From a virus (Duplodnaviria; Heunggongvirae; Uroviricota; Caudoviricetes), in the IMG/VR virus record IMGVR_UViG_2645728091_000016: 34,413 nt of DNA, one strand, 5' to 3'. The notes under the pieces were generated by a model, which was not told where the DNA came from, did not search any database, and worked only from the letters and a program-made list of their open reading frames with translations. This document shows, piece after piece, positions 208 to 33,679 of the stretch; the stretch's first letter is position 1; each line of letters opens with the position of its first letter. Both the position numbers and the translations under genes were made by a program.

Positions 208-777
208 TTACCTAACGTACTTAATTGTTAAACTTATAATTTTCCCAATTATTTCAACATCTTCTATCTTGCACTCGAAGGCTCTGTTTCCACCCTCGAC
301 GAAGATTCTTCCACCGGGTAAACGAGTAATGTCACGGATCGTTATTTCGCCATCAATACTTATTACCCATTTACCATCACGTATATCATCAAATTCCTTA
401 TCACAAATAAATTCAGAATTATTATCTGTGATTACAAAAAGATTCTTGAATGCCGACGGTAGAAATTCTCTATCGAAAATATAAAAACCGTCTTCACACA
501 AGGCCCCATCAGATAATACATATTTAGCAACTTCCATAGTATTTGTATTACCTGAAGTTTGCTTTGAACCATGCCCGGTTGTGAGCCAATTAAGCGAGGT
601 GCCTGTTTCAAGGGCGCACTGGATTACCCATTCTGCTGGGAATGAGTCACGCATGTAGCGTGTGGCGAGTGTACTTTTAGAGATTCCTAAATGATCGCAC
701 AACGCCTGTCGAGTCTTGAATCCATAAGCTTCTACCATGCGCTCTATAGCGCCTCGTCCGCCTTTCTCCAAATTCAT
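208..777 (-). CDS. cI: phage 186-type CI immunity repressor
   Basis: 189 aa from ATG at 777 (track starts at in-frame GTG 783); N-terminal HTH-like segment (QALCDHLGISKSTLATRYMRD); divergent from Apl-like/CII genes as in phage 186. Confidence 0.75.
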   Translation of the reverse strand: MNLEKGGRGAIERMVEAYGFKTRQALCDHLGISKSTLATRYMRDSFPAEWVIQCALETGTSLNWLTTGHGSKQTSGNTNTMEVAKYVLSDGALCEDGFYIFDREFLPSAFKNLFVITDNNSEFICDKEFDDIRDGKWVISIDGEITIRDITRLPGGRIFVEGGNRAFECKIEDVEIIGKIISLTIKYVR

Positions 778-801
778 GGTCACTCCAAGTGAACTTTTAT
801 C

Positions 802-830
802 TTGACGATTTCACTGTGCGATCGTATGTT
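802..830 (+). promoter_or_regulatory. putative sigma70 lytic promoter (pR-like) in the cI/apl switch region: -35 TTGACG (802-807), 17-bp spacer, -10 TATGTT (825-830)
   Basis: Read directly from sequence; sits about 70 bp upstream of the Apl-like ATG at 903. Confidence 0.45.
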
Positions 831-902
831 TATGGTGTTCACAAAATACAAACGATCCGTATTCGTCCTGATTAATCATCATTAAACGAGGAATGTTGCA
901 TC

Positions 903-1124
903 ATGAGACCTAACATTTCAATCACTCTTACCACCCCTCATGTGACTATTGAACGCTATAGCGAGCTGACAGGGCTATCCATCGATACCATCAATGACAT
1001 GTTGGCTGATGGACGCCTTATCCGTCACCGTCTGCGCAAAGATAAAAAACGCGAAAAAGTGATGATCAACATAGCAGCAATGACCGTTGATGCGCTTTCA
1101 GAATGCAATCTAAACCTTAATTAG
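903..1124 (+). CDS. Apl/Cox-like small DNA-binding regulator/excisionase (first gene of the lytic operon)
   Basis: 73-aa basic protein, ATG at 903 with GAGG upstream; position immediately divergent from cI as for 186 apl / P2 cox. Confidence 0.5.
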
Positions 1125-1156
1125 TTCGATTCTGAAATACATCAGAGGCATTGACC

Positions 1157-1666
1157 ATGTTTGATTACCAAGTTTCCAAACATCCACATTTTGATGAAGC
1201 CTGTCGTGCATTCGCATTGCGCCACAACCTGGTGCAACTGGCAGAACGTGCTGGCATGAATGTGCAGATTCTGCGGAACAAGTTGAACCCAGCGCAACCT
1301 CATTTATTAACCGCACCAGAAATCTGGCTGCTTACCGATCTGACTGAAGATTCAACGCTGGTAGATGGTTTTCTGGCTCAGATTCACTGCCTGCCATGCG
1401 TACCGATTAATGAGGTGGCAAAAGAGAAACTGCCACATTACGTCATGAGTGCAACCGCAGAGATCGGGCGTGTTGCTGCAGGTGCGGTATCTGGCGATGT
1501 AAAAACCAGTGCAGGTCGTCGTGATGCTATCAGCAGCATTAACTCTGTAACACGACTGATGGCGTTGGCTGCTGTTTCATTGCAGGCCCGTTTACAGGCT
1601 AACCCTGCGATGGCGAGTGCAGTTGATACCGTGACTGGCCTCGGTGCTTCATTCGGTTTGCTGTGA
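1157..1666 (+). CDS. cII: phage 186-type CII regulatory protein
   Basis: 169 aa from ATG 1157 (AGAGG 8 nt upstream); size and position match 186 CII. Confidence 0.65.
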
Positions 1667-1673
1667 GGTGCTT

Positions 1674-1874
1674 ATGCTGACGAAAGAACCATCATTTGCA
1701 TCGCTGCTGGTAAAGCAAAGCCCGGCAATGCACTACGGTCACGGCTGGATCATGGGTGAGGATGGAAAACGCTGGCATCCGTGCCGTTCACAAGATGAAT
1801 TGCTGGCAGAACTATCTACGAAAAAACGGGGGAACAAATGGCTATTGAAGGCGCTGCGGCGACTGTTCCATTAA
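1674..1874 (+). CDS. small early-region protein of unknown function (possibly Fil-like)
   Basis: ATG 1674 preceded by GAGGTG; 66 aa; in early operon. Confidence 0.4.
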   Translation: MLTKEPSFASLLVKQSPAMHYGHGWIMGEDGKRWHPCRSQDELLAELSTKKRGNKWLLKALRRLFH

Positions 1875-2179
1875 GACCCGGTGAACGCCTGAATGGACTT
1901 AATCATATTGCGGAGTTAAGGGCGAAAGTTTTTGGTTTGAATATTGAGTCAGAGCTTGAGCGGTTTATTAAAGATATGCGTGATCCACGGGATATCAATA
2001 ATGAACAAAATAAACGGGCACTGGCTGCCATATTCTTTATGGCAAAAATTCCAGCTGAACGTCATAGCATCAGCATTAATGAGCTGACCACTGACGAAAA
2101 GCGGGAGTTGATTAAAGCAATGAATCATTTTCGTGCAGTGGTGAGCTTATTTCCCAGACGGCTAACCATGCCGAATTAA
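1838..2179 (+). CDS. hypothetical early-region protein
   Basis: 113-aa ORF, ATG 1838 with GGGGGA upstream; overlaps previous ORF end. Confidence 0.5.
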   Translation: MAIEGAAATVPLRPGERLNGLNHIAELRAKVFGLNIESELERFIKDMRDPRDINNEQNKRALAAIFFMAKIPAERHSISINELTTDEKRELIKAMNHFRAVVSLFPRRLTMPN

Positions 2180-2246
2180 CCAACTAATGAAATTAATGGC
2201 GTAAACCCGCCGGGCATCCCTTTATCTAAATTCAGGAGAATTGCTT

Positions 2247-2480
2247 ATGCGTAATATTGAAACCCTCACGACCAAAACCGGACCGGATGATGCAGGTCTT
2301 AATCTTTTACTGACAGAGGCTCGTCTGGAAGAACGCCGGGCAAGGGCTGAAGCAATGGCTGCTCGCCTCGATAGCCTGGCGTGTCATATCACCTCCCGCC
2401 AGCTAAACCACGTCGAAGCGGCAGAACTGCTGCGTGTGACTGCTGAAGCAATCCAGAACGAAGCGCAGGAGATCCACTGA
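2247..2480 (+). CDS. small early protein (DUF2732-like, by recollection only)
   Basis: ATG 2247 with AGGAG 8 nt upstream; 77 aa, Arg/Ala/Glu-rich helical. Confidence 0.5.
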   Translation: MRNIETLTTKTGPDDAGLNLLLTEARLEERRARAEAMAARLDSLACHITSRQLNHVEAAELLRVTAEAIQNEAQEIH

Positions 2481-2707
2481 TGGCTGATGCAATGGATCTC
2501 GTACAGCAGCGCGTTGAAGAAGAACGCCAACGCCATATCCGTGCTGCTCGTGCCAAAACGCCGGGCGTGTCCCGCGTGCTTTGCGTTGAGTGTGAAGCGC
2601 CAATTCCGCCAGCACGCCGCCGTGCCATTCCTGGAGTGCAGCTTTGCATTACCTGCCAGGAAATCGCAGAGCTGAAAGGCAAACATTACAACGGAGGTGC
2701 TGTATGA
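2480..2707 (+). CDS. TraR/DksA-family C4 zinc-finger protein
   Basis: CVECEAPIP...RRAIPGVQLCITCQ two CxxC pairs, resembling F-plasmid TraR; ATG overlaps upstream stop (TGATG). Confidence 0.7.
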   Translation: MADAMDLVQQRVEEERQRHIRAARAKTPGVSRVLCVECEAPIPPARRRAIPGVQLCITCQEIAELKGKHYNGGAV

Positions 2708-3561
2708 GCACCATCCTGAAATGGGCGGGTAATAAAACCGCCATTATGTCCGAACTGAAAAAATACCTTCCTGCTGGCCCGCGACTGGTTGAACCTTTCG
2801 CGGGTTCTTGTGCTGTGATGATGGCGACGGATTACCCCAGCTATCTGGTTGCGGATATTAATCCTGATTTAATCAACCTCTATAAAAAGATTGCCGCTGA
2901 TTGCGAAGCGTTTATATCTCGTGCCAAAGTTTTATTTGAGGAAGCAAACAGTGAGCTGGCTTATTACAACATAAGACAGGAGTTTAATTACTCAACTGAA
3001 ATTACTGATTTCATGAAGGCGATATATTTCCTATATCTCAATCGTCACGGTTACCGTGGTTTATGTCGCTATAACAAGAGCGGGTATTTCAACATTCCCT
3101 ACGGTAATTATAAAAATCCGTATTTCCCTGAAAAAGAAATTCGCGCATTTGCAGAGAAAGCCCAGCGGGCAACGTTTATCTGCGCGAGCTTTGATGAAAC
3201 GCTGGCGATGCTGCAGGTGGGGGATGTGGTGTATTGCGATCCGCCGTATGACGGTACGTTTTCCGGCTATCACACTGATGGTTTCACTGAAGATGACCAG
3301 TATCACCTGGCATCCATTCTTGAACATCGGTCATCAGAAGGACATCCGGTCATTGTTTCTAACAATGACACATCCCTGATTCGTTCGCTGTATCGCAATT
3401 TTACTCACCACTATATCAAGGCAAAACGCAGCATCGGCGTGTCAGCTGGCGAGGGTAAATCTGCAACAGAAATCATTGCTGTTTCCGGGCCGAGCTGCTG
3501 GTTGGGATTTGATCCTTCGCGTGGCGTGGATAGTTCTGCCGTGTACAGAGTGTGTGTATGA
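2704..3561 (+). CDS. dam: Dam-family DNA adenine-N6 methyltransferase
   Basis: [15 protein letters not shown] (SAM-binding motif I) and DPPY (motif IV); ATGA overlaps with both neighbours. Confidence 0.85.
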
Positions 3562-5972
3562 GTCATGACGATATGAACAATTGCAGCGGCTTTAACGAGG
3601 CCGCCGCAGCATTTTCATGGAACGGCTCGAAAAAGGCCATTAACCCTTATCTGGACCCGGCGGAAGTTGCGCCGGAGTCTGCACTTTCAAACCTGATCAC
3701 TCTGTACGCTGCCGATAACGAGCAGGAACAACTGCGCCGCGAGGCACTGAGTGAGCAGGTCTGGGAGCGTTATTTCTTTAATGAATCCCGTGATCCTGTC
3801 CAGCGCGAAATGGAGCAGGATAAGCTCATTAGCCGGGCAAAGCTGGCGCATGAGCAGCAGCGTTTTAATCCGGACATGGTCATTCTGGCGGACGTAAACG
3901 CCCAGCCTTCCCATATCAGCAAGCCGCTGATGCAACGTATTGAATACTTCAGCAGCCTGGGCAGGCCAAAGGCTTATTCCCGCTATTTGCGTGAGACGAT
4001 TAAGCCATGTCTGGAGCGACTGGATTGTGTACGTGACAGTCAGCTATCTGTTTCTTTCCGTTTTATGGCAAGCCATCAAGGGCTGGAGGGTCTGCTGATC
4101 CTGCCTGAAATGAGCCAGGATCAGGTGAAACGCCTGTCCACCCTGGTAGCAGCGCATATGAGCATGTGTCTTGAGGACGCTTGTGGTGATTTGTATGCCA
4201 CCGATGACGTTAAGCCAGAAGAAATCCGCAAGACATGGGAAAAGGTGGCAGCGGAAACCCTGCGTCTGGATGTTATCCCGCCTGCGTTTGAGAAACTTCG
4301 TCGGAAAAGAAACCGCCGCAAACCAGTGCCCTATGAACTCATCCCGGGTTCGCTGGCGCGTATGTTGTGTGCCGACTGGTGGTATCGGAAATTATGGAAG
4401 ATGCGTTGCGAATGGCGGGAAGAGCAGTTGCGTGCTGTCTGCCTGGTCAGCAAAAAAGCATCCCCCTATGTCAGCTATGAAGCCGTGATGCATAAACGTG
4501 AGCAGCGCCGTAAGTCGCTGGAGTTTTTTCGTTCTCATGAACTGGTGAACGAAGACGGCGACACGCTGGATATGGAAGATGTGGTAAACGCCAGCAGCAG
4601 CAACCCGGCGCATCGCCGCAATGAGATGATGGCCTGTGTTAAAGGTCTGGAGCTTATCGCGGAAATGCGCAGTGACTGTGCCGTTTTCTACACTATCACC
4701 TGTCCGTCGCGTTTCCATTCCACGCTCAATAACGGCAGACCAAACCCGACCTGGACAAACGCGACGGTAAGACAAAGTAGCGATTATCTGGTCGGCATGT
4801 TTGCTGCATTTCGTAAGGCTATGCATAAAGCCGAGTTGCGCTGGTATGGCGTGCGGGTAGCTGAGCCGCATCATGACGGTACTGTGCACTGGCATCTCAT
4901 GTGTTTCATGCGTAAAAAAGACCGCCGCGCCATCACTGCATTACTGCGTAAGTTTGCCATCCGTGAAGACCGCGAGGAGCTGGGCAATAACACGGGACCA
5001 CGCTTTAAGTCTGAGCTGATAAACCCGCGCAAAGGTACGCCAACAAGCTATATCGCGAAATACATCAGTAAGAACATTGACGGGCGTGGTCTGGCTGGGG
5101 AGATCAGCAAGGAAACGGGTAAATCCCTGCGTGATAACGCTGAATACGTTAATGCCTGGGCGTCTCTGCATCGTGTTCAGCAATTCCGCTTCTTTGGCAT
5201 TCCGGGGCGTCAGGCTTACCGTGAACTGCGATTGCTGGCTGGTCAGGCGGCAAGGCAACAGGGTGACAAAAAAGCAGGTGCGCCGGTACTGGATAACCCG
5301 CGCCTTGATGCCATTCTGGCTGCTGCTGATGCTGGTTGTTTTGCCACCTATATCATGAAGCAGGGTGGCGTACTGGTTCCCCGTAAATATCACCTCATCA
5401 GAACCGCTTATGAAATCAACGAAGAGCCAACCGCTTATGGCGATCACGGTATTCGTATTTATGGCATCTGGTCACCCATTGCAGAGGGCAAGATCTGCAC
5501 TCATGCGGTGAAGTGGAAAATGGTTCGTAAGGCCGTTGACGTTCAGGAGGCGGCTGCCGACCAGGGCGCTTGCGCCCCTTGGACTCGTGGCAATAACTGT
5601 CCCCTTGCTGAAAATTTGAACCAACAGGAGAAAGATAAATCAGCTGATGGGGACTCCAGAACGGACATTACCAGCATGGATGACAAGGAGTTGCACGATT
5701 ACCTGCACAGTATGAGCAAAAAAGAGCGCCGGGAACTGGCAGCAAGGTTACGCCTGGTGAAACCGAAACGGCGTAAAGACTACAAACAGCGAATTACAGA
5801 CCATCAGCGACTGCAGCTCGTGTATGAGCTGAAGTCCAGAGGATTTGATGGCAGCGAGAAAGAGGTCGATTTACTCCTTCGCGGAGGCAGTATTCCGTCA
5901 GGAGCAGGCCTGCGTATCTTCTATCGGAACCAGCGTTTGCAGGAAGATGATCAGTGGCGGAACCTGTATTAA
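3558..5972 (+). CDS. A: replication initiation endonuclease (P2 gpA-type rolling-circle initiator)
   Basis: About 805 aa from ATG 3558; HUH-type motif TVHWHLM; position after early operon. Confidence 0.9.
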
Positions 5973-6064
5973 TTCCGCGGGCTAACAATTCGTGCTCTTA
6001 ATAATACCAAGCATATCATGCTGATGAATGTAAAAAAACGTTTTACATCAGTAAGATTATTATA

Positions 6065-6084
6065 TACTGTAAATATAAACAGTG
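6065..6084 (+). promoter_or_regulatory. LexA (SOS) box TACTGTAAATATAAACAGTG
   Basis: CTGT-N8-ACAG with AT-rich spacer at 6067-6082, about 45 bp upstream of ATG 6126. Confidence 0.7.
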
Positions 6085-6125
6085 GTTATGCATACAGTGT
6101 TGCTTGTGGTGTCATAGGAGGAAAA

Positions 6126-6314
6126 ATGCAGGACTATTTTTTGGAGTCTTTGAAGCTCCAGCGCATTGATTTTTTTCTTAAGCTTGTAGCGGCTAGTGAG
6201 TGTAGTGATGAAGAGAAGGGGCTGGCTCTGCAGTGGGTTTCTGAATTGACTGATGAACTCATGGCAAAGATCAGAATCCACGAATACAGCCGCTCAATGG
6301 ATGTCATCAGTTGA
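6126..6314 (+). CDS. small SOS-controlled protein, possible Tum-type antirepressor module
   Basis: 62-aa ORF, ATG 6126 with GGAGG upstream; directly downstream of LexA box; position equals 186 tum. Confidence 0.45.
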   Translation: MQDYFLESLKLQRIDFFLKLVAASECSDEEKGLALQWVSELTDELMAKIRIHEYSRSMDVIS

Positions 6315-6324
6315 GGTGACTTTT

Positions 6325-6558
6325 ATGCGCATTGAAATAATGATCGATAAAGAGCAAAAAATTAGCCAGTCTACCCTGGACGCCCTTGAATCCGAGCTTT
6401 ACCGCAATCTGCGCCCCCTGTATCCCAAAGCGGTAATTCGTATCCGTAAAGGTAGCTCTAATGGTGTGGAACTGACCGGACTGCAACTGGACGAAGAAAG
6501 AAAACAAGTGATGAAAATTATGCAGAAGGTGTGGGAAGACGACAGCTGGCTGCATTAA
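6325..6558 (+). CDS. DinI-family protein
   Basis: MRIEIMIDK...LDALESEL...KIMQKVWEDDSWLH aligns along its length to E. coli DinI as recalled; ATG 6325 with GAGGTGA upstream. Confidence 0.8.
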   Translation: MRIEIMIDKEQKISQSTLDALESELYRNLRPLYPKAVIRIRKGSSNGVELTGLQLDEERKQVMKIMQKVWEDDSWLH

Positions 6559-6824: not shown

Positions 6825-7358
6825 TTAACCTTGTATAGTTATTTGAATATTTTCTTCATTAACACCAAAGTATAGGGCTAGCCCTGCTTTTGCCTCCTGA
6901 AGTGTTAACGGCTTAACTACATTTTCTTCTTCTTCTTCTTCGTACTCATCACCCGCTTGATCGACAATCGAATTAGTCGGGGTTAATTTGGGAAGAGCTT
7001 TAAATTCCAACTTGTCAGCCTCAATGCCAATGTCTTTGAGGTTGCGATAAGAAACGGGATTCCGATTGCCATCCCATTGTCCTGGGATGTCAATTTCAGC
7101 ATAAGAATTGATGTTTATGATCCAGCGTTTAGGGTTTTCTGGAGCCCTGCTTACTCCCGAGATTCGACCGATCATAAAAGCATGATGATGTTTTGCTTCT
7201 TGTGATCCCCAGTCCTTTCTCGAATTTTGTACACAAACTAAATATTCGTGCTTAGCTGCATGGCTGGCGTCAAGTCTCCATGCTTGGCTTCCCCCTGTGT
7301 TCAAAATCTCTGTTAAACCACGAGCAGTAAGTACAGTAATACAGTTGGTAGTAGCCAT
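6825..7358 (-). CDS. uncharacterised 177-aa accessory protein (orphan cargo gene; candidate anti-phage function)
   Basis: Clean ORF with ATG at 7358 and TAA stop; AT-rich; opposite strand to flanking phage genes; acidic EYEEEEEEN tract and HHH triplet; no family recognised by eye. Confidence 0.7.
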   Translation of the reverse strand: MATTNCITVLTARGLTEILNTGGSQAWRLDASHAAKHEYLVCVQNSRKDWGSQEAKHHHAFMIGRISGVSRAPENPKRWIININSYAEIDIPGQWDGNRNPVSYRNLKDIGIEADKLEFKALPKLTPTNSIVDQAGDEYEEEEEENVVKPLTLQEAKAGLALYFGVNEENIQITIQG

Positions 7359-7864: not shown

Positions 7865-8680
7865 TTGAACATTAATTTTGATGTTGTGATCAAGAGCGAT
7901 GATCATCAGGTTGATATGGATTATGGGTTGAAGACCCTGGCAGGAACTTCTAGAGTTGTTTCAACTATGGCTGAGGCAATTTTAAAAAAAGAGGTTTCGG
8001 AAAGAAGAACGAGTGTTAATGATATTAGGACACAGCTAAAGCAGAGTTTTAAAAGCTCTTATGGGCAAAATTTCTGTATTGAAGTTAATGATCCCGTTTT
8101 AAAAAGAAAATTAAAGAAAATGGGACACGATGTTTTTTGCGAAGTTATGTCCTATTATATTTCAGAGTCTATGTTTTTGGAGGCTAATAAATTAAGTTCG
8201 GCTGCTCAGGATGTTGTAAATGATCTTAATGATATAGAAGATAAATTGCTGGAGGTATTACGTCGAGGATTAATTGATATGCATAAAATAACTACAATGA
8301 GTAGTTTTAATGTCGAGCTAAATCATCACCCTCGTGGTAATAGGCAGCGAATTGCAACATTAACTCCGAAGACAGCTAAACATATTACAGAGACCGAAGA
8401 GGGTACTAGTGAATATCAGATTGATGTCATTTTTACTCGTTTTAATTCAATGACAGGTAACGGTCGGCTTATTGTAAGAAATGACGATAAAACAACCGCC
8501 TTTGGTCTTGCAAAAGGATTACGATTTGTTCCTTTGCACTTTAAAAAGAAAATTACTGAGAATCTTCATAAGAACAATGGATTAACTAAGCAAAATTGGC
8601 AATATGTAACGTTAACTGTACATGATTTAAAATTGGCTGGCGGGGAAGTAGTAAAATATTTTATTCATGAGATTTCATAG
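7865..8680 (+). CDS. uncharacterised soluble protein, gene A of a two-gene accessory operon (candidate defence sensor/enzyme)
   Basis: 271-aa ORF from TTG 7865 (AAGG 8 nt upstream); alternative in-frame starts GTG 7886 and ATG 7916; AT-rich; no motif recognised. Confidence 0.65.
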   Translation: MNINFDVVIKSDDHQVDMDYGLKTLAGTSRVVSTMAEAILKKEVSERRTSVNDIRTQLKQSFKSSYGQNFCIEVNDPVLKRKLKKMGHDVFCEVMSYYISESMFLEANKLSSAAQDVVNDLNDIEDKLLEVLRRGLIDMHKITTMSSFNVELNHHPRGNRQRIATLTPKTAKHITETEEGTSEYQIDVIFTRFNSMTGNGRLIVRNDDKTTAFGLAKGLRFVPLHFKKKITENLHKNNGLTKQNWQYVTLTVHDLKLAGGEVVKYFIHEIS

Positions 8681-9383
8681 AATGAAAAGAATAATATATA
8701 TTAGTTTTATCATTATAGTTGTAGTTATATCTATGTATTTTTACAACTTTAATACTGGAAAAGGGTTATCTAAAAGTACTGAGGTTTGGGGACAGTTCGG
8801 AGATTATTTGGGTGGGGTTGTTAATCCCATTCTTACTTTTTTATCAATTGTGTTATTGATTAAATCAATAGATTTACAACGTGATGCTAATGCAAGTATC
8901 ATTAATGAAAATAAGAGGCAGGAAAAGCTCGATTATCTGAAGAATTTTGAAATGCGATTTTATAGTTTGATCGACGCACAACGCACTGCATTCGAAAAGT
9001 TTACATTATTAAATGTTGATGGGGTAAATATAAAAGGAGTTGAAGCTGTAAATAAACTTGAGGATTTTATTTTTAACATGAAGAATGAAGGTAAGAGTAA
9101 GGAGGTTGTTTCTAAATTTATTACAGATTGCGATGTGTCTGAATCAATCTACTCTTCAGTACGGCGCTTTTATTTATTAGTCCGTCTCATAGATGAAAAG
9201 CTGGAACGTGAAGAGCGGGACGAATATTATGAGATACTGATTAATATGACTGATTTTCCGTTGGTTAGATTAATTGTTCTTGCATTATGTGTCTATGATT
9301 GGGATATAATAAAGTATATTGACTCTAGTTCTGTTTTAGCGAAGGATGAGTTGGTACAATATCGTGCATATTTTCAATTGTGA
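8667..9383 (+). CDS. uncharacterised membrane protein with two N-terminal TM helices plus about 170-aa soluble domain, gene B of the operon (candidate abortive-infection effector)
   Basis: ATG 8667 (or in-frame ATG 8682) overlapping gene A stop; hydrophobic segments IIYISFIIIVVVISMYFYNF and VVNPILTFLSIVLLIKSI. Confidence 0.7.
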   Translation: MRFHRMKRIIYISFIIIVVVISMYFYNFNTGKGLSKSTEVWGQFGDYLGGVVNPILTFLSIVLLIKSIDLQRDANASIINENKRQEKLDYLKNFEMRFYSLIDAQRTAFEKFTLLNVDGVNIKGVEAVNKLEDFIFNMKNEGKSKEVVSKFITDCDVSESIYSSVRRFYLLVRLIDEKLEREERDEYYEILINMTDFPLVRLIVLALCVYDWDIIKYIDSSSVLAKDELVQYRAYFQL

Positions 9384-31346: not shown

Positions 31347-33032
31347 TTATCCTAATCCTGGCCATACCATGACGATGATTGTCCCTGCCAGCGTCAGCAG
31401 GACGTTGGCGATTGCATAGGTGCCCGCATAGCCCAGCGCCGGGATGTTACTGCGAGCTGTATCACTGATGATCTCCATTGCCGGCGCGCAGGTGCGTGCG
31501 CCCATCATTGCGCCGAACAACAGTGCGCGGTTCATTCGCAATACATAAGCACCGAACAAGAAACAGATAACCACTGGCACAAGACTGACAATCAATCCGG
31601 CAATCAACATCTGACCGCCAATCGCGCCCAGGCCGTTATTAATACCGCTACCGGCGCTCAGACCAACGCCTGCCATAAACACCATTAAGCCGAACTCTTT
31701 CACCATGCTTAATGCACCCTGCGGAATGTAACCGAAGGTCGGGTGGTTAGCGCGCATAAATCCCAGCATAATTCCGGCGAATAACAACCCGGCAGCGTTC
31801 CCCATGCCGAAACTGAATGTGCTGAACTGGAAGGTGATCATCCCGATCATCAGCCCAATAACAAAGAAGGCGCAGAATGCCAGCAAGTCAGTGACCTGGC
31901 TGTGAATCGAGATAAAGCCGATGCGATCGGCGATGGTTTTTACGCGACGGGCATCGCCGCTGACTTGTAAAACGTCACCTTTGTTAAGCACGACGTTGTC
32001 ATCTATCGGCATCTCAATCTGGCTACGAATGACGCGGTTAAGGAAGCAACCGTGATCGGTCAACTTCAGTTGTGCGAGACGTTTGCCAACGGCGTTATGG
32101 TTTTTAACGACCACTTCTTCAGTGACGATACGCATGTCGAGAAGGTCACGATCGAAAACTTCTTTGCCGTTACGGAAGCTGGGATCGAGTCGTGCGTGGG
32201 CGTCGGGATAGCCTACCAACGCTATTTCATCGCCCATTTGTAGCACAGCATCACCGTCTGGATTTGCCAGAATCCCGTTACGTCGAATACGTTCAATGTA
32301 GCAGCCAGTTTGTCGATAAATACCCAGTTCACGCAGATTTTTGCCGTCGGTCCAGGCCACCAGCTCCGGGCCGACGCGGTAGGCGCGGATCACCGGTAAA
32401 TAAACCTTACGGTTGGCATCAGTGTCCAGGCCACGTTCGCGGGCGATTTGCTGGGCGCTGGTCTGTAAGTCCTGATGCTGCAATTTCGGCAAGTAACGCG
32501 CACCAACAATCAAACTCACCAGACCGATTAAATAGGTTAAGGCATACCCGAGGCTCAGATTATCCAGTGCCAGTGAGAGCTGCCTGCTTTCCATGCCGGA
32601 ATGACGCAGTGTATCGCCAGCACCGACCAGAACCGGTGTCGACGTCATAGAGCCAGCTAACATACCGGCCGTCAGGCCAATATCCCAGCCAAACAGCTTA
32701 CCTAACCCTAAGGCGATCACCAGCGCACTGCCAACCATCACCAGTGCTAACATTAGGTAATTTTTCCCATCGCGAAAAAAAATGGAAAAAAAGTTCGGTC
32801 CGGCTTCGACCCCGACGCAGAAAATAAACAGCATAAAGCCAAGATTAAGCGCGTCGGTGTTAATGCTGAAATGTTGTTGGCCTAATAACAGCGATACGAC
32901 TAAAACGCCAATGGAATTACCCAGTTGGATCGAACCAAGTCGTAATTTCCCGAGACATAGCCCAAGCGCGAGGACCACAAATAATAACAGAATGTAATTC
33001 CCATTTAACAATTCGGCGACGTTTATATTCAC
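31347..33032 (-). CDS. ybjL: putative AAE-family transporter YbjL (two TrkA-C/RCK_C domains)
   Basis: 561 aa; sequence recognised as E. coli YbjL. Confidence 0.9.
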
Positions 33033-33301: not shown

Positions 33302-33679
33302 GTGAAACATAAACAACGTTGGGCGGGGGCAATCTGCTGTTTTGTCCTCTTCATTGTGGTGTGTCTTTTTCTGGCGACGCACATGAAAGGCGCTTTTCGG
33401 GCTGCCGGACATCCTGAAATCGGTTTGCTATTTTTCATTCTTCCTGGTGCAGTTGCCAGCTTCTTTTCACATCGTAGAGAAGTCCTGAAACCTCTGTTTG
33501 GCGCAATGCTGGCGGCACCCTGTTCGATGCTCATTATGCGGCTGTTTTTTTCACCGACGCGCTCATTCTGGCAAGAGTTGGCATGGTTATTAAGTGCGGT
33601 GTTCTGGTGTGCGCTGGGGGCATTGTGTTTCTTATTTATCAGTAGTTTGTTTAAACCACAGCACAGAAAAAATCAATAA
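33302..33679 (+). CDS. ybjM: inner membrane protein YbjM
   Basis: 125 aa, GTG start; recognised as E. coli YbjM; synteny. Confidence 0.8.
   Translation: MKHKQRWAGAICCFVLFIVVCLFLATHMKGAFRAAGHPEIGLLFFILPGAVASFFSHRREVLKPLFGAMLAAPCSMLIMRLFFSPTRSFWQELAWLLSAVFWCALGALCFLFISSLFKPQHRKNQ

Follow-up and report, generated by a model that had tools for sequence, protein, structure and literature searches.

Why does a temperate P2/186-like phage carry a DNA adenine methyltransferase gene (dam) directly before its replication gene A, and what is the function of the conserved tail with which this enzyme ends? We asked these questions for a stretch of Caudoviricetes DNA of 34,413 nucleotides (IMG/VR record IMGVR_UViG_2645728091_000016), called the window below. 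The answer that we consider probable is a functional phage orphan Dam, likely directed at GATC and expressed in lytic growth only, which would top up the methylation of phage DNA and hand ribosomes over to gene A.

The dam locus and its gene boundaries

The locus contains the following features (positions in the window).

208-783, minus strand: gene of a 186-type CI repressor (PF07022, PF16452)
802-830, plus strand: promoter-like site TTGACG-17-TATGTT, flanked by the CI repressor gene and the first early gene; presumed early lytic promoter of the dam operon, by the phage 186/P2 layout
2241-2480, plus strand: DUF2732 gene (PF10809, E = 4e-29; phrog_128), homologue of 186 Orf79 and P2 Orf80
2480-2707, plus strand: gene of a TraR/DksA-type C4 zinc-finger protein of 75 aa, CxxC...CxxC (PF01258, TIGR02419, phrog_54)
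2693-2698, plus strand: Shine-Dalgarno sequence GGAGGT for dam, within the 3' end of the TraR-like gene, 5 nt 5' of the ATG at 2704
2704-3561, plus strand: dam, a 285-aa orphan D12-class alpha-type N6-adenine DNA methyltransferase with predicted target GATC (family scores, EcoDam alignment, fold)
2797-2811, plus strand: dam motif I (AdoMet binding), F32-A-G34-S-C36, from alignments
3049-3114, plus strand: dam DNA-recognition beta-hairpin, residues 116-137, from the EcoDam alignment (residue roles from PMC4417163)
3238-3249, plus strand: dam catalytic motif IV, D179-P-P-Y182, from sequence and alignments
3493-3558, plus strand: dam C-terminal extension, residues 264-285, predicted to be disordered (conservation, pN/pS, pLDDT, tail HMM)
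3547-3550, plus strand: weak Shine-Dalgarno-like AGAG for gene A, 7 nt 5' of the ATG at 3558
3558-5972, plus strand: gene A, rolling-circle replication initiator of 804 aa (PF05840)
3581-3616, plus strand: GC-rich hairpin (3581-3609) and, after it, UUUU (3613-3616), at 23-59 nt into gene A; candidate tM1 counterpart

Direct reading shows that dam overlaps both of its neighbours by an ATGA, at 2704-2707 with the TraR-like gene and at 3558-3561 with A. Further upstream, the stop codon TGA of the DUF2732 gene and the ATG of the TraR-like gene share one base (TGATG, 2478-2482). In a 99.8%-identical E. coli locus, RefSeq gives identical boundaries for all three CDS. We do not regard these stop/start overlaps as chance, since the dam stop, as A/G/T-TGA, overlaps a possible start codon in 30 of the 30 tail-bearing related loci examined, and the junction at the traR 3' end (GGAGGT or GGGGGT with ATGA) is widespread, being present in most related loci (junction table).

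The TraR-like protein scores 67.1 bits against TIGR02419 (cut-off 59.7) and 43 bits against PF01258 (cut-off 24.9, E = 4e-11), and its four cysteines form the pattern C-V-E-C ...17... C-I-T-C. It shares both the family cut-off of TIGR02419 and the CxxC...CxxC finger with the TraR/DksA C4 zinc fingers of phages and conjugative plasmids, but stays under the equivalog cut-off for plasmid TraR (NF010268, 40.8 versus 108 bits). The protein is 68% identical to 186 Orf80 and 45% identical to P2 Orf82; according to the phage 186 record (GenBank U32222), Orf80 is of unknown function and not essential. On the other side of dam, the A protein matches PF05840 (Phage_GPA) with 425 bits (cut-off 31.4, E = 1.5e-127) and is about 29% identical to the A proteins of P2 and 186.

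An earlier note on this DNA had described the gene as an orphan methyltransferase of the Dam family, lying in the early operon with ATGA overlaps to a TraR-like zinc finger and to replication gene A. All of this is borne out here. The overlaps are seen in the sequence itself, in the RefSeq boundaries and in the conserved junctions, both neighbours score above the cut-offs of PF01258, TIGR02419 and PF05840, and the gene order is the one found in the early operons of 186, P2 and RE-2010. The enzyme passes the PF02086 and TIGR00571 cut-offs, has the fold of EcoDam and contains DPPY; it is flanked by the genes for the TraR-like protein and gpA with no adjacent nuclease, and its best PADLOC model is 'orphan methyltransferase' (oMTase, E = 1e-109).

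Family, fold and predicted target

Dam reaches 254 bits against PF02086 (cut-off 22, E = 2.4e-75, residues 7-244) and 317 bits against TIGR00571 (cut-off 114.85, residues 1-260). Since its score against NF008152, the equivalog of the host chromosomal Dam, is 284 bits and hence below the cut-off of 441, we treat it as a family member and not as an orthologue of the host Dam; its context is also that of a prophage. Identity to EcoDam is 45.5% over 260 residues that span the whole catalytic and DNA-binding domains. An AlphaFold model built on a 111-sequence alignment has a pLDDT of 85 and a pTM of 0.83 (39 close homologues alone gave a pLDDT of 51), and Foldseek matches it to EcoDam chains with a TM of 0.93-0.95 (0.94-0.95 for 2g1p/4rtm), an rmsd of about 2 Å and E = 1e-31.

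The order of the motifs is that of the alpha class, that is, motif I, then the DNA-binding insert (residues 60-150), then motif IV. Where EcoDam has F-V-G-A-G in motif I, the phage enzyme has F-A-G-S-C; the second glycine is replaced by C36, which is invariant across the tail-bearing clade. Six of the seven DNA contacts of EcoDam (residue roles from PMC4417163) are kept: K6, Y117, L120, R122, P132 and Y136 of the phage protein correspond to K9, Y119, L122, R124, P134 and Y138. The exception is N120, which is R118 in the phage Dam. In the beta-hairpin, Y117, R118, L120, R122, P132 and Y136 are invariant in the clade. The pN/pS of the Dam core over 33 loci is 0.21, indicating functional constraint; evolution is fast in the mosaic stretch of residues 60-105 in the DNA-binding domain (pN/pS 0.56).

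Because six of the seven contact residues are kept, GATC specificity is likely, and by its sequence the enzyme most likely methylates the adenine of this site. A target other than GATC, or broader than it, seems very unlikely to us. The changes of N120 to Arg and of the second motif I glycine to Cys would speak for it, as would the mosaic residues 60-105, and the authors of PMC4659465 state that no recognition site is known for the homologues of a prophage PF02086 methylase. Against this, L120, P132, R122 and Y117, which read base pairs 3 and 4 and intercalate, and K6 and Y136, which belong to base pair 1, are the same as in EcoDam and do not vary within the clade. T4 Dam, too, reportedly differs at the N120 position in its structure papers and is nonetheless GATC-specific. 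The two replacements might alter flanking preference or kinetics. Our literature searches found no experimental work, activity or specificity data specific to this Dam clade.

Orphan status and relation to known systems

We call this Dam an orphan because no nuclease gene adjoins it. Within the window there is no cognate or target nuclease gene, as a type II restriction-modification system would include, and the related loci that reach past dam show a likewise nuclease-free context. Other relatives have C5-cytosine methylases (PF00145) or PAPS-reductase-like proteins (PF01507) between the TraR-like gene and A. This P2/186-type slot, then, collects DNA-modification genes (Dam, C5-methylase, PAPS-reductase-like), and its cargo genes appear to be wired into a translation relay that feeds the replication initiator.

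The dam module as such is already known and annotated: apart from its short conserved tail, it is the ordinary Dam in the early lytic operon of a common 186/Fels-2-type E. coli prophage. A RefSeq 'DNA adenine methylase' of this kind is found in 1245 of 5426 complete E. coli genomes (about a quarter). As a discovery dam matters little, with gene, family and position annotated in sequenced phages and E. coli genomes alike; its use is to illustrate cleanly the slot, the relay and the gain of the tail.

The nucleotide identity of the module to Salmonella phage RE-2010 and Klebsiella phage 4LV2017 is 94.5-95.3%. These Felsduovirus-type phages (the RE-2010 enzyme is gp10, YP_007003503) have the same gene order of DUF2732, DksA/TraR, methyltransferase and A, with the same 4-nt overlaps; the proteins of RE-2010 are 91.6% (Dam), 98.7% (TraR-like) and 96.6% (A) identical to those of the window. 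The copy in the window differs in details only, namely a private G282R (position 3547) and its own variant of the mosaic residues 60-105.

EcoDam (PDB 2G1P/4RTJ) shares the fold, the motif order and DPPY, and is an orphan as well. It has 8 unconserved residues in place of the conserved 22-aa C-terminal extension of the phage enzyme, however, and is found in the host's own dam locus, not in a lytic operon. A closer parallel in position is orf84 of phage 186 (GenBank U32222), which likewise lies directly 5' of A with a 4-nt ATGA overlap and an early terminator-like hairpin. Orf84, on the other hand, is a member of the PAPS-reductase family (PF01507) instead of a methylase and shows no detectable relationship to the Dam tail at its C-terminus; the slot of 186 also contains an RNase_T-like exonuclease gene, orf81, and orf83. 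T4 Dam (PDB 1YFJ) and the cellular relative DpnM have the same D12-class family and fold (E = 6e-17, TM about 0.8) with an identity of only about 21-22%. T4 Dam is also phage-borne and without a nuclease partner, but T4 is a lytic phage, whereas the dam studied here sits in a temperate P2/186-like phage and in another genomic context.

Expression and coupling to gene A

The operon begins with the promoter-like site at 802-830, and dam is its seventh ORF. The site is the only sigma-70-like match on the plus strand in 700-6400; there is no further promoter-like site on this strand between 830 and 6400, and dam has none of its own. Transcription would thus start at the promoter next to the CI gene, pass apl/cII/fil, the genes of DUF5347 and DUF2732 and the TraR-like gene, and reach dam and A. 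As a part of this long early operon, dam would be transcribed only once the prophage has switched to lytic growth.

On the level of translation, the overlapping codons suggest a relay. Ribosomes that end the TraR-like gene would restart at the dam ATG (ATGA with the strong GGAGGT), and those that end dam would restart at the ATG of A through the second ATGA. In this way, translation of dam may bring ribosomes to A, as is noted in the phage 186 record (GenBank U32222) for the unrelated orf84, which apparently has to be translated to its end if the A protein is to be translated. The same record annotates the intragenic terminator tM1 inside A, in the same relative place as the hairpin at 3581-3616. 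By analogy, we infer a translational coupling of dam and A of the 186 orf84-A type and consider this hairpin a candidate counterpart of tM1, which translation of A may in turn mask. The free energy of the hairpin is -16.3 kcal/mol (z -2.6), and a similar hairpin with UUUU occurs in the related loci L008 and L005.

On the other hand, A could initiate independently of dam translation, because many relatives have a good Shine-Dalgarno sequence (GAGGTG) before the next gene. At this site the relatives have GGAG or GAGG(TG), which encodes the E-V of their usual ending ...HEVRA, and in tail-bearing loci GAGGTG lies 7-9 nt before the next start. The A at 3547, which causes G282R and turns GGAG into AGAG, is private to the window. 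RNAalifold on 14 junctions gave no pairs and no conserved structure occluding the A start, and the single-sequence fold of the junction was not more stable than shuffles (z 0.22).

The C-terminal extension

What is the additional sequence at the end of Dam? According to the earlier note, some 40 C-terminal residues reach past the catalytic region and overlap A. An extension does exist, but it is about 22 aa long (residues 264-285) and its overlap with A is 4 nt only. We prefer the shorter length because an end at residue 244 is given by the Pfam envelope alone; the TIGR00571 match continues to 260, the alignment with EcoDam ends at 263, and 253-261 is the last strand that the AlphaFold model places with confidence.

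The same note had proposed an alignment of the tail, and in 36 distinct tail sequences it proves to be conserved in the Dam clade, with the motif W266-x-G268-x-D270-x-[A/S]-x-G274-x-D276-x-S-[V/A]. The Trp is kept in 31 of the 36 sequences, Gly in 33, Asp in 35 and Ala in 31, where both Gly and Ala use all four codons. The pN/pS of the tail is 0.49. Synonymous divergence of codons 266-280 is near saturation (pS 0.68, compared with 0.63 in the core) and is lower in the last five codons (pS 0.50). Judged by these codon statistics, the tail is under selection at the protein level. It is predicted to be disordered, with a pLDDT below 50 for residues 266-285 of the AlphaFold model. The tail is retained also where another gene sits between dam and A, and in the locus table its presence does not apparently follow either the A protein type or an upstream TraR-like gene. 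Prophage Dams that are more distant (about 48-57% identity, several 58-63%) but occupy the same place in the operon have no tail and stop soon after the catalytic domain. The tail was gained by this Dam clade, and apparently nobody has examined it.

We suggest that about the first 15 codons of the tail form a conserved, probably disordered peptide motif, and that the choice of about the last five is restricted by the ribosome-binding site for the next gene. Could the tail as a whole be without a peptide function, a translated spacer that brings ribosomes to the next gene and carries its Shine-Dalgarno sequence? The last codons E-V do coincide, as GAGGTG, with that Shine-Dalgarno sequence and have the lower synonymous divergence, the tail is predicted to be disordered, and the distant prophage Dams in the same position do without it. 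For a spacer, however, one would expect a pN/pS near 1 and not 0.49, and residues 266-279 keep W, G, D, A, G, D and S/T-V in the 36 sequences at a pS of 0.68, with all four codons in use for Gly and Ala and with the motif kept where the downstream gene is not A. We consider a mere spacer rather doubtful.

If the motif does act as a peptide, it might be a short docking peptide that tethers Dam to the A initiator, to the host replisome or to another early phage protein; this specific proposal is speculative, and we hold it to be quite unlikely. If it were true, methylation would be aimed at replicating phage DNA or limited in time, a regulatory layer which the host Dam lacks and which is undescribed for phage Dam enzymes in the literature searched. 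A targeting peptide of this kind would show how a phage steers a promiscuous methylase onto its own DNA.

Two other ideas about the tail were discarded. To the eye, the Dam tail has look-alikes at the C-terminus of 186 Orf84 (...DKTVCSSVYAGVCE) and at that of a Yersinia C5-methylase (...PLWIGTDLAGVTE), as if it were common to different enzymes. An HMM built from 55 Dam tails does not support this: in a search of all 11,532 ORFs from the window and the related loci, it found Dam proteins only and no C-terminus of Orf84 or a C5-methylase at E <= 10. Conservation of the tail as an RNA or DNA signal was rejected as well, except for about the last five codons (Shine-Dalgarno), given that synonymous divergence equals that of the core and no structure was found.

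Proposed role of the enzyme and its alternatives

Apart from bringing ribosomes to A, dam may provide extra methylase capacity that keeps the fast-replicating rolling-circle phage DNA fully GATC-methylated. Full methylation would avoid the hemimethylation-dependent host proteins MutH and SeqA, as well as GATC-directed restriction in a new host. From the position of the gene, such a link between Dam and replication is plausible. The hosts E. coli, Salmonella and Klebsiella methylate GATC by their own Dam, and that a second GATC methylase is of benefit in Dam-positive hosts is an assumption of our proposal. The gene is accessory, since both P2 and 186 lack a dam and still replicate.

Besides an effect on replication, the earlier note had offered two roles, protection of phage DNA from restriction and an effect on host gene expression in the lysogen. 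With restriction as the main target, progeny would be protected from GATC-cutting enzymes of the MboI/DpnII/Sau3AI type, or from defences reading unmethylated GATC, in the next host. The phage genome does retain its GATC sites, and the other DNA-modification genes found in the slot in relatives (PF00145, PF01507) fit a general self-protection cassette. However, the hosts of the closest relatives (E. coli, Salmonella, Klebsiella) are Dam-positive. In such a host the phage DNA is already GATC-methylated, and methylation-sensitive GATC-cutting enzymes would be self-toxic. A cognate or target nuclease is also missing from the window. Protection from restriction is thus possible as an effect, but weak as the primary role, because the hosts already Dam-methylate GATC and the phage, with its 129 sites, does not avoid GATC; as the main role we think it unlikely.

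The second suggestion, lysogenic conversion, fares worse. Here the prophage Dam would be active in the lysogen and would alter host GATC methylation and, hence, gene expression, mismatch repair or the timing of replication. As a general precedent, prophage methylases can influence host phenotypes, for instance in S. aureus (PMC12435837). But dam is placed deep in a CI-repressed lytic operon, has no promoter-like site of its own and would receive its ribosomes from lytic genes, so that a role in the lysogen is very unlikely. M.EcoMIV, a prophage PF02086 Dam homologue of E. coli EC958, is moreover transcribed far below the host dam (PMC4659465). We looked for a link between M.EcoMIV and the clade and dropped it: its prophage was not found in two 50-kb stretches of the EC958 chromosome, and for this reason M.EcoMIV serves as a loose parallel only.

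We therefore keep to methylation top-up in lytic growth, combined with the ribosome relay to A, as the preferred reading. As to the sites themselves, neither avoidance nor clustering of GATC was found in the window, where the ratio of observed to expected sites is 0.8-0.97. The 129 GATC sites are available as substrate for the enzyme.

The dam gene and its prophage setting

A reading of 2100-3800 and the ORF list give four successive genes on the + strand, with stop and start codons overlapping at each junction. These genes, together with the repressor and host genes that frame them, are as follows.

208-783, minus strand: 186-type CI repressor, upstream of the operon genes
2241-2480, + strand: DUF2732 gene (PF10809 profile match)
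2480-2707, + strand: TraR/DksA-type C4 zinc-finger gene, 75 aa (TGATG junction; PF01258 and TIGR02419 above cut-off)
2704-3561, + strand: dam, 285-aa methyltransferase, from ATG to TGA (ATGA junction; GGAGGT at 2693-2698)
3558-5972, + strand: replication gene A, starting with ATG (ATGA junction; PF05840, E 1.5e-127)
31347-33032, minus strand, and 33302-33679, + strand: host genes for an Asp-Al_Ex/TrkA_C transporter and YbjM, at the right end from ~31.3 kb

The Dam protein matches PF02086 (E 2.4e-75) and TIGR00571 (317 bits, cut-off 114.85). Sequence reading and profile searches thus bear out the earlier note on the identity and family of the gene, on what flanks it and on its two ATGA overlaps. 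Its reading of an orphan enzyme is also right: there is no nuclease neighbour, and the best PADLOC match is an orphan-methylase model.

Further genes upstream are a CII/CP76 homologue, Fil and a DUF5347 gene; a DinI-like gene, three cargo ORFs, the portal and terminase genes and the remaining P2-type morphogenetic block follow A. The host genes place the right prophage boundary at ~30.8-31.3 kb. The part of the window to the left of the CI gene (left edge 1-192) has no integrase gene, so the left prophage end is cut off. From the repressor and early genes, the P2-type block and the flanking host genes we conclude that the window is most of a 186/Fels-2-like (Peduoviridae) prophage, with dam in its early lytic operon.

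The cargo ORFs (6825-7358, minus; 7865-8680 and 8667-9383, both +) occupy the stretch from the DinI-like gene (6253-6558) to the portal gene, where P2 has tin and old. They have no functional Pfam or PADLOC match; their hits are limited to the PHROGs 37247, 13337 and 8999, none with an assigned function, and to DUF7946 below threshold. Both + strand ORFs may belong to one operon, as they overlap. All three are candidate accessory or defence genes.

The dam of the window is commonplace and widely annotated. Across the 1.5-kb module (2200-3700), identity to Klebsiella phage 4LV2017, to a series of Klebsiella prophage isolates and to Salmonella phage RE-2010 is 94.5-95.3%, and their records carry the identical four-gene annotation with identical overlaps. 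Of 5426 complete E. coli genomes, 1245 contain the module, with identity reaching 99.8%. Near relatives of the protein number in the thousands and come from Escherichia, Salmonella, Klebsiella, Citrobacter, Enterobacter and other genera. RefSeq labels the genes, in order, 'TraR/DksA family transcriptional regulator', 'DNA adenine methylase' and 'replication endonuclease'. At annotation level the arrangement, an orphan Dam in a prophage with a TraR-like gene before it and A behind it, is already known. The conserved C-terminal tail motif described below is the sole feature that looks undescribed, a modest addition; a literature search found no experimental paper on the tail-bearing Dam clade. 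A PF02086 methylase from an E. coli EC958 prophage, a parallel at family level only, was reported to be poorly transcribed, with its specificity not assigned (PMC4659465).

Enzyme core and predicted specificity

Dam is 45.5% identical to the E. coli chromosomal enzyme (EcoDam) over 260 residues. Its AlphaFold model (pLDDT 85, 111-sequence alignment) matches EcoDam structures in Foldseek at TM 0.93-0.95. Motif IV is DPPY (179-182) and motif I reads F-A-G-S-C. Seven EcoDam residues make GATC-specific contacts, namely K9, Y119, N120, L122, R124, P134 and Y138 (PMC4417163). Six of them are identical in Dam and invariant in its clade, the exception being N120, which is Arg; since these six are kept, GATC would be the expected target. 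The protein misses the cut-off of the host-Dam equivalog (284 vs 441 bits).

Two substitutions are invariant in the tail-bearing clade: R118 (3052-3057) replaces the base-contacting N120 of EcoDam, and C36 (2809-2811) replaces the second Gly of motif I. A broader alignment of mostly tail-less relatives has the consensus F-N-G where this clade has Y-R-G.

The core is under clear purifying selection (pN/pS 0.21, 33 loci). The helical portion of the DNA-binding domain, residues 60-105 (2881-3018), evolves fast (pN/pS 0.56) and is mosaic, with distinct sequence types shuffled among near relatives relative to the remaining protein. This pattern suggests recombination or diversifying pressure on that surface. 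It also explains why Dam is only 91.6% identical to its RE-2010 counterpart, whereas its neighbours reach 98.7% and 96.6%.

A conserved C-terminal tail

The earlier note had described a C-terminal extension of about 40 residues that overlaps the start of A. An extension does exist, but its length was overstated: about 40 is the number of residues past the end of the Pfam envelope (residue 244). The TIGR00571 alignment reaches residue 260, the last confident strand of the model spans 253-261, and the EcoDam alignment reaches 263 (EcoDam 270 of 278), which leaves 22 residues, 264-285. The overlap with A is real and amounts to four nucleotides only.

The tail was surveyed by scanning one genome per species, which returned 80 loci. 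Dams down to ~54% identity carry it; remoter prophage Dams in the equivalent operon position (~48-57% identity, several 58-63%) end soon after the catalytic domain. The alignment that the earlier note had proposed as a check shows conservation: the motif, counted over 36 distinct tail-coding sequences, runs W (31), hydrophobic, G (33), hydrophobic, D (35), x, A (31), x, G (28), x, D (31), x, S/T (30), V/A (32). The first G, the A and the second G each use four codons. Synonymous divergence equals that of the core (0.68 vs 0.63) and pN/pS is 0.49, so the constraint acts on the peptide, though less strongly than on the enzyme core. Loci in which a C5-methylase or PAPS-reductase-like gene separates dam from A keep the tail, which also accompanies both types of A (~80-97% and ~31-35% identical to that of the window).

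The AlphaFold pLDDT of the tail is below 50, so by itself it is probably disordered. It falls outside every Pfam, PHROG and PADLOC model, and a tail HMM run against 11,532 ORFs matched Dam tails and nothing else. That it is a docking peptide targeting or timing the methylase is a speculation to which we give little credence. The final five codons, with the common ending H-E-V-R-A-stop (CAT GAG GTG CGN GCA TGA), are the ribosome-binding site of the downstream gene: GAGGTG stands 7-9 nt before its overlapping start, and synonymous divergence is lower here (0.50).

Two of the GATC sites inside dam fall on conserved codons, one at 3238-3241 (D-P of DPPY, GAT CCG) and one at 3511-3514 (tail D270-P271, GAT CCT); the D270 codon is likewise part of a GATC in roughly half of the related tails. 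Since Asp at both conserved tail positions is GAT whether or not GATC forms, the pattern suggests codon bias and not a signal.

A cassette site and possible coupling to gene A

The layouts of 186 and P2 match the window gene for gene up to the TraR-like gene (homologous to 186 Orf80, 68% identical, and P2 Orf82) and again from A onward. What lies between differs from phage to phage: orf83 in P2; an RNase_T-type exonuclease (orf81), orf83 and a PAPS-reductase-family gene (orf84) in 186; dam in the window; dam with a C5-cytosine methylase or with an Orf84 homologue in other relatives; and a cytosine methylase in Salmonella phage SI7. The slot is therefore a cassette site where DNA-modification genes are enriched. 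Besides Dam, its contents are C5-cytosine methylases (PF00145), PAPS-reductase-family proteins (PF01507, 186 Orf84 homologues), the RNase_T-type exonuclease and genes without an assigned function, which often follow dam directly with ATGA overlaps (related loci L012, L013, L017, L019, L022, L035, L042, L044, L047 and L064, ~4350-5450 in each; L082, phage 186, 1251-3108).

According to the 186 GenBank record, A seems to be translated only if orf84 is translated to its end, and a terminator just inside A, tM1, is expected to act when A is untranslated. The dam gene holds the position of orf84 with an equal 4-nt overlap. A GC-rich hairpin followed by UUUU (3581-3616, 23-59 nt inside A; dG -16.3 kcal/mol, z -2.6) resembles tM1 and recurs in divergent relatives (L008, L005). 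By analogy with orf84, position, overlap and hairpin suggest that dam, besides encoding an enzyme, may be the final step of a ribosome relay that leads into A. The hairpin arms encode Gly-Gly and Ala-Ala, which makes coding constraint and structure inseparable. We found no conserved RNA structure occluding the A start, and a good SD precedes A in many relatives.

A private G-to-A change at 3547 alters Dam by G282R and leaves a weaker SD-like sequence ahead of A, AGAG in place of GGAG. The 61-nt dam-A junction has an exact match in none of the 5426 complete E. coli genomes. Each of the 59 closest junctions departs from it at a single position, and a base-by-base comparison with one of them showed G at 3547. 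Either genuine variation or a sequencing error could account for the change.

Expected expression and proposed role

The only + strand promoter-like site in 700-6400 adjoins the repressor gene, so dam is expected to be expressed only after derepression. This argues against the role in host gene expression in the lysogen that the earlier note had raised as a possibility, which we regard as unlikely. The hosts are Dam-positive. With 129 GATC sites in the window, approximately the expected frequency, the phage DNA offers ample substrate. The simplest role would be a boost in methylase capacity while rolling-circle replication proceeds, which would keep phage DNA from being left hemimethylated or unmethylated; protection in a new host may be a secondary benefit.
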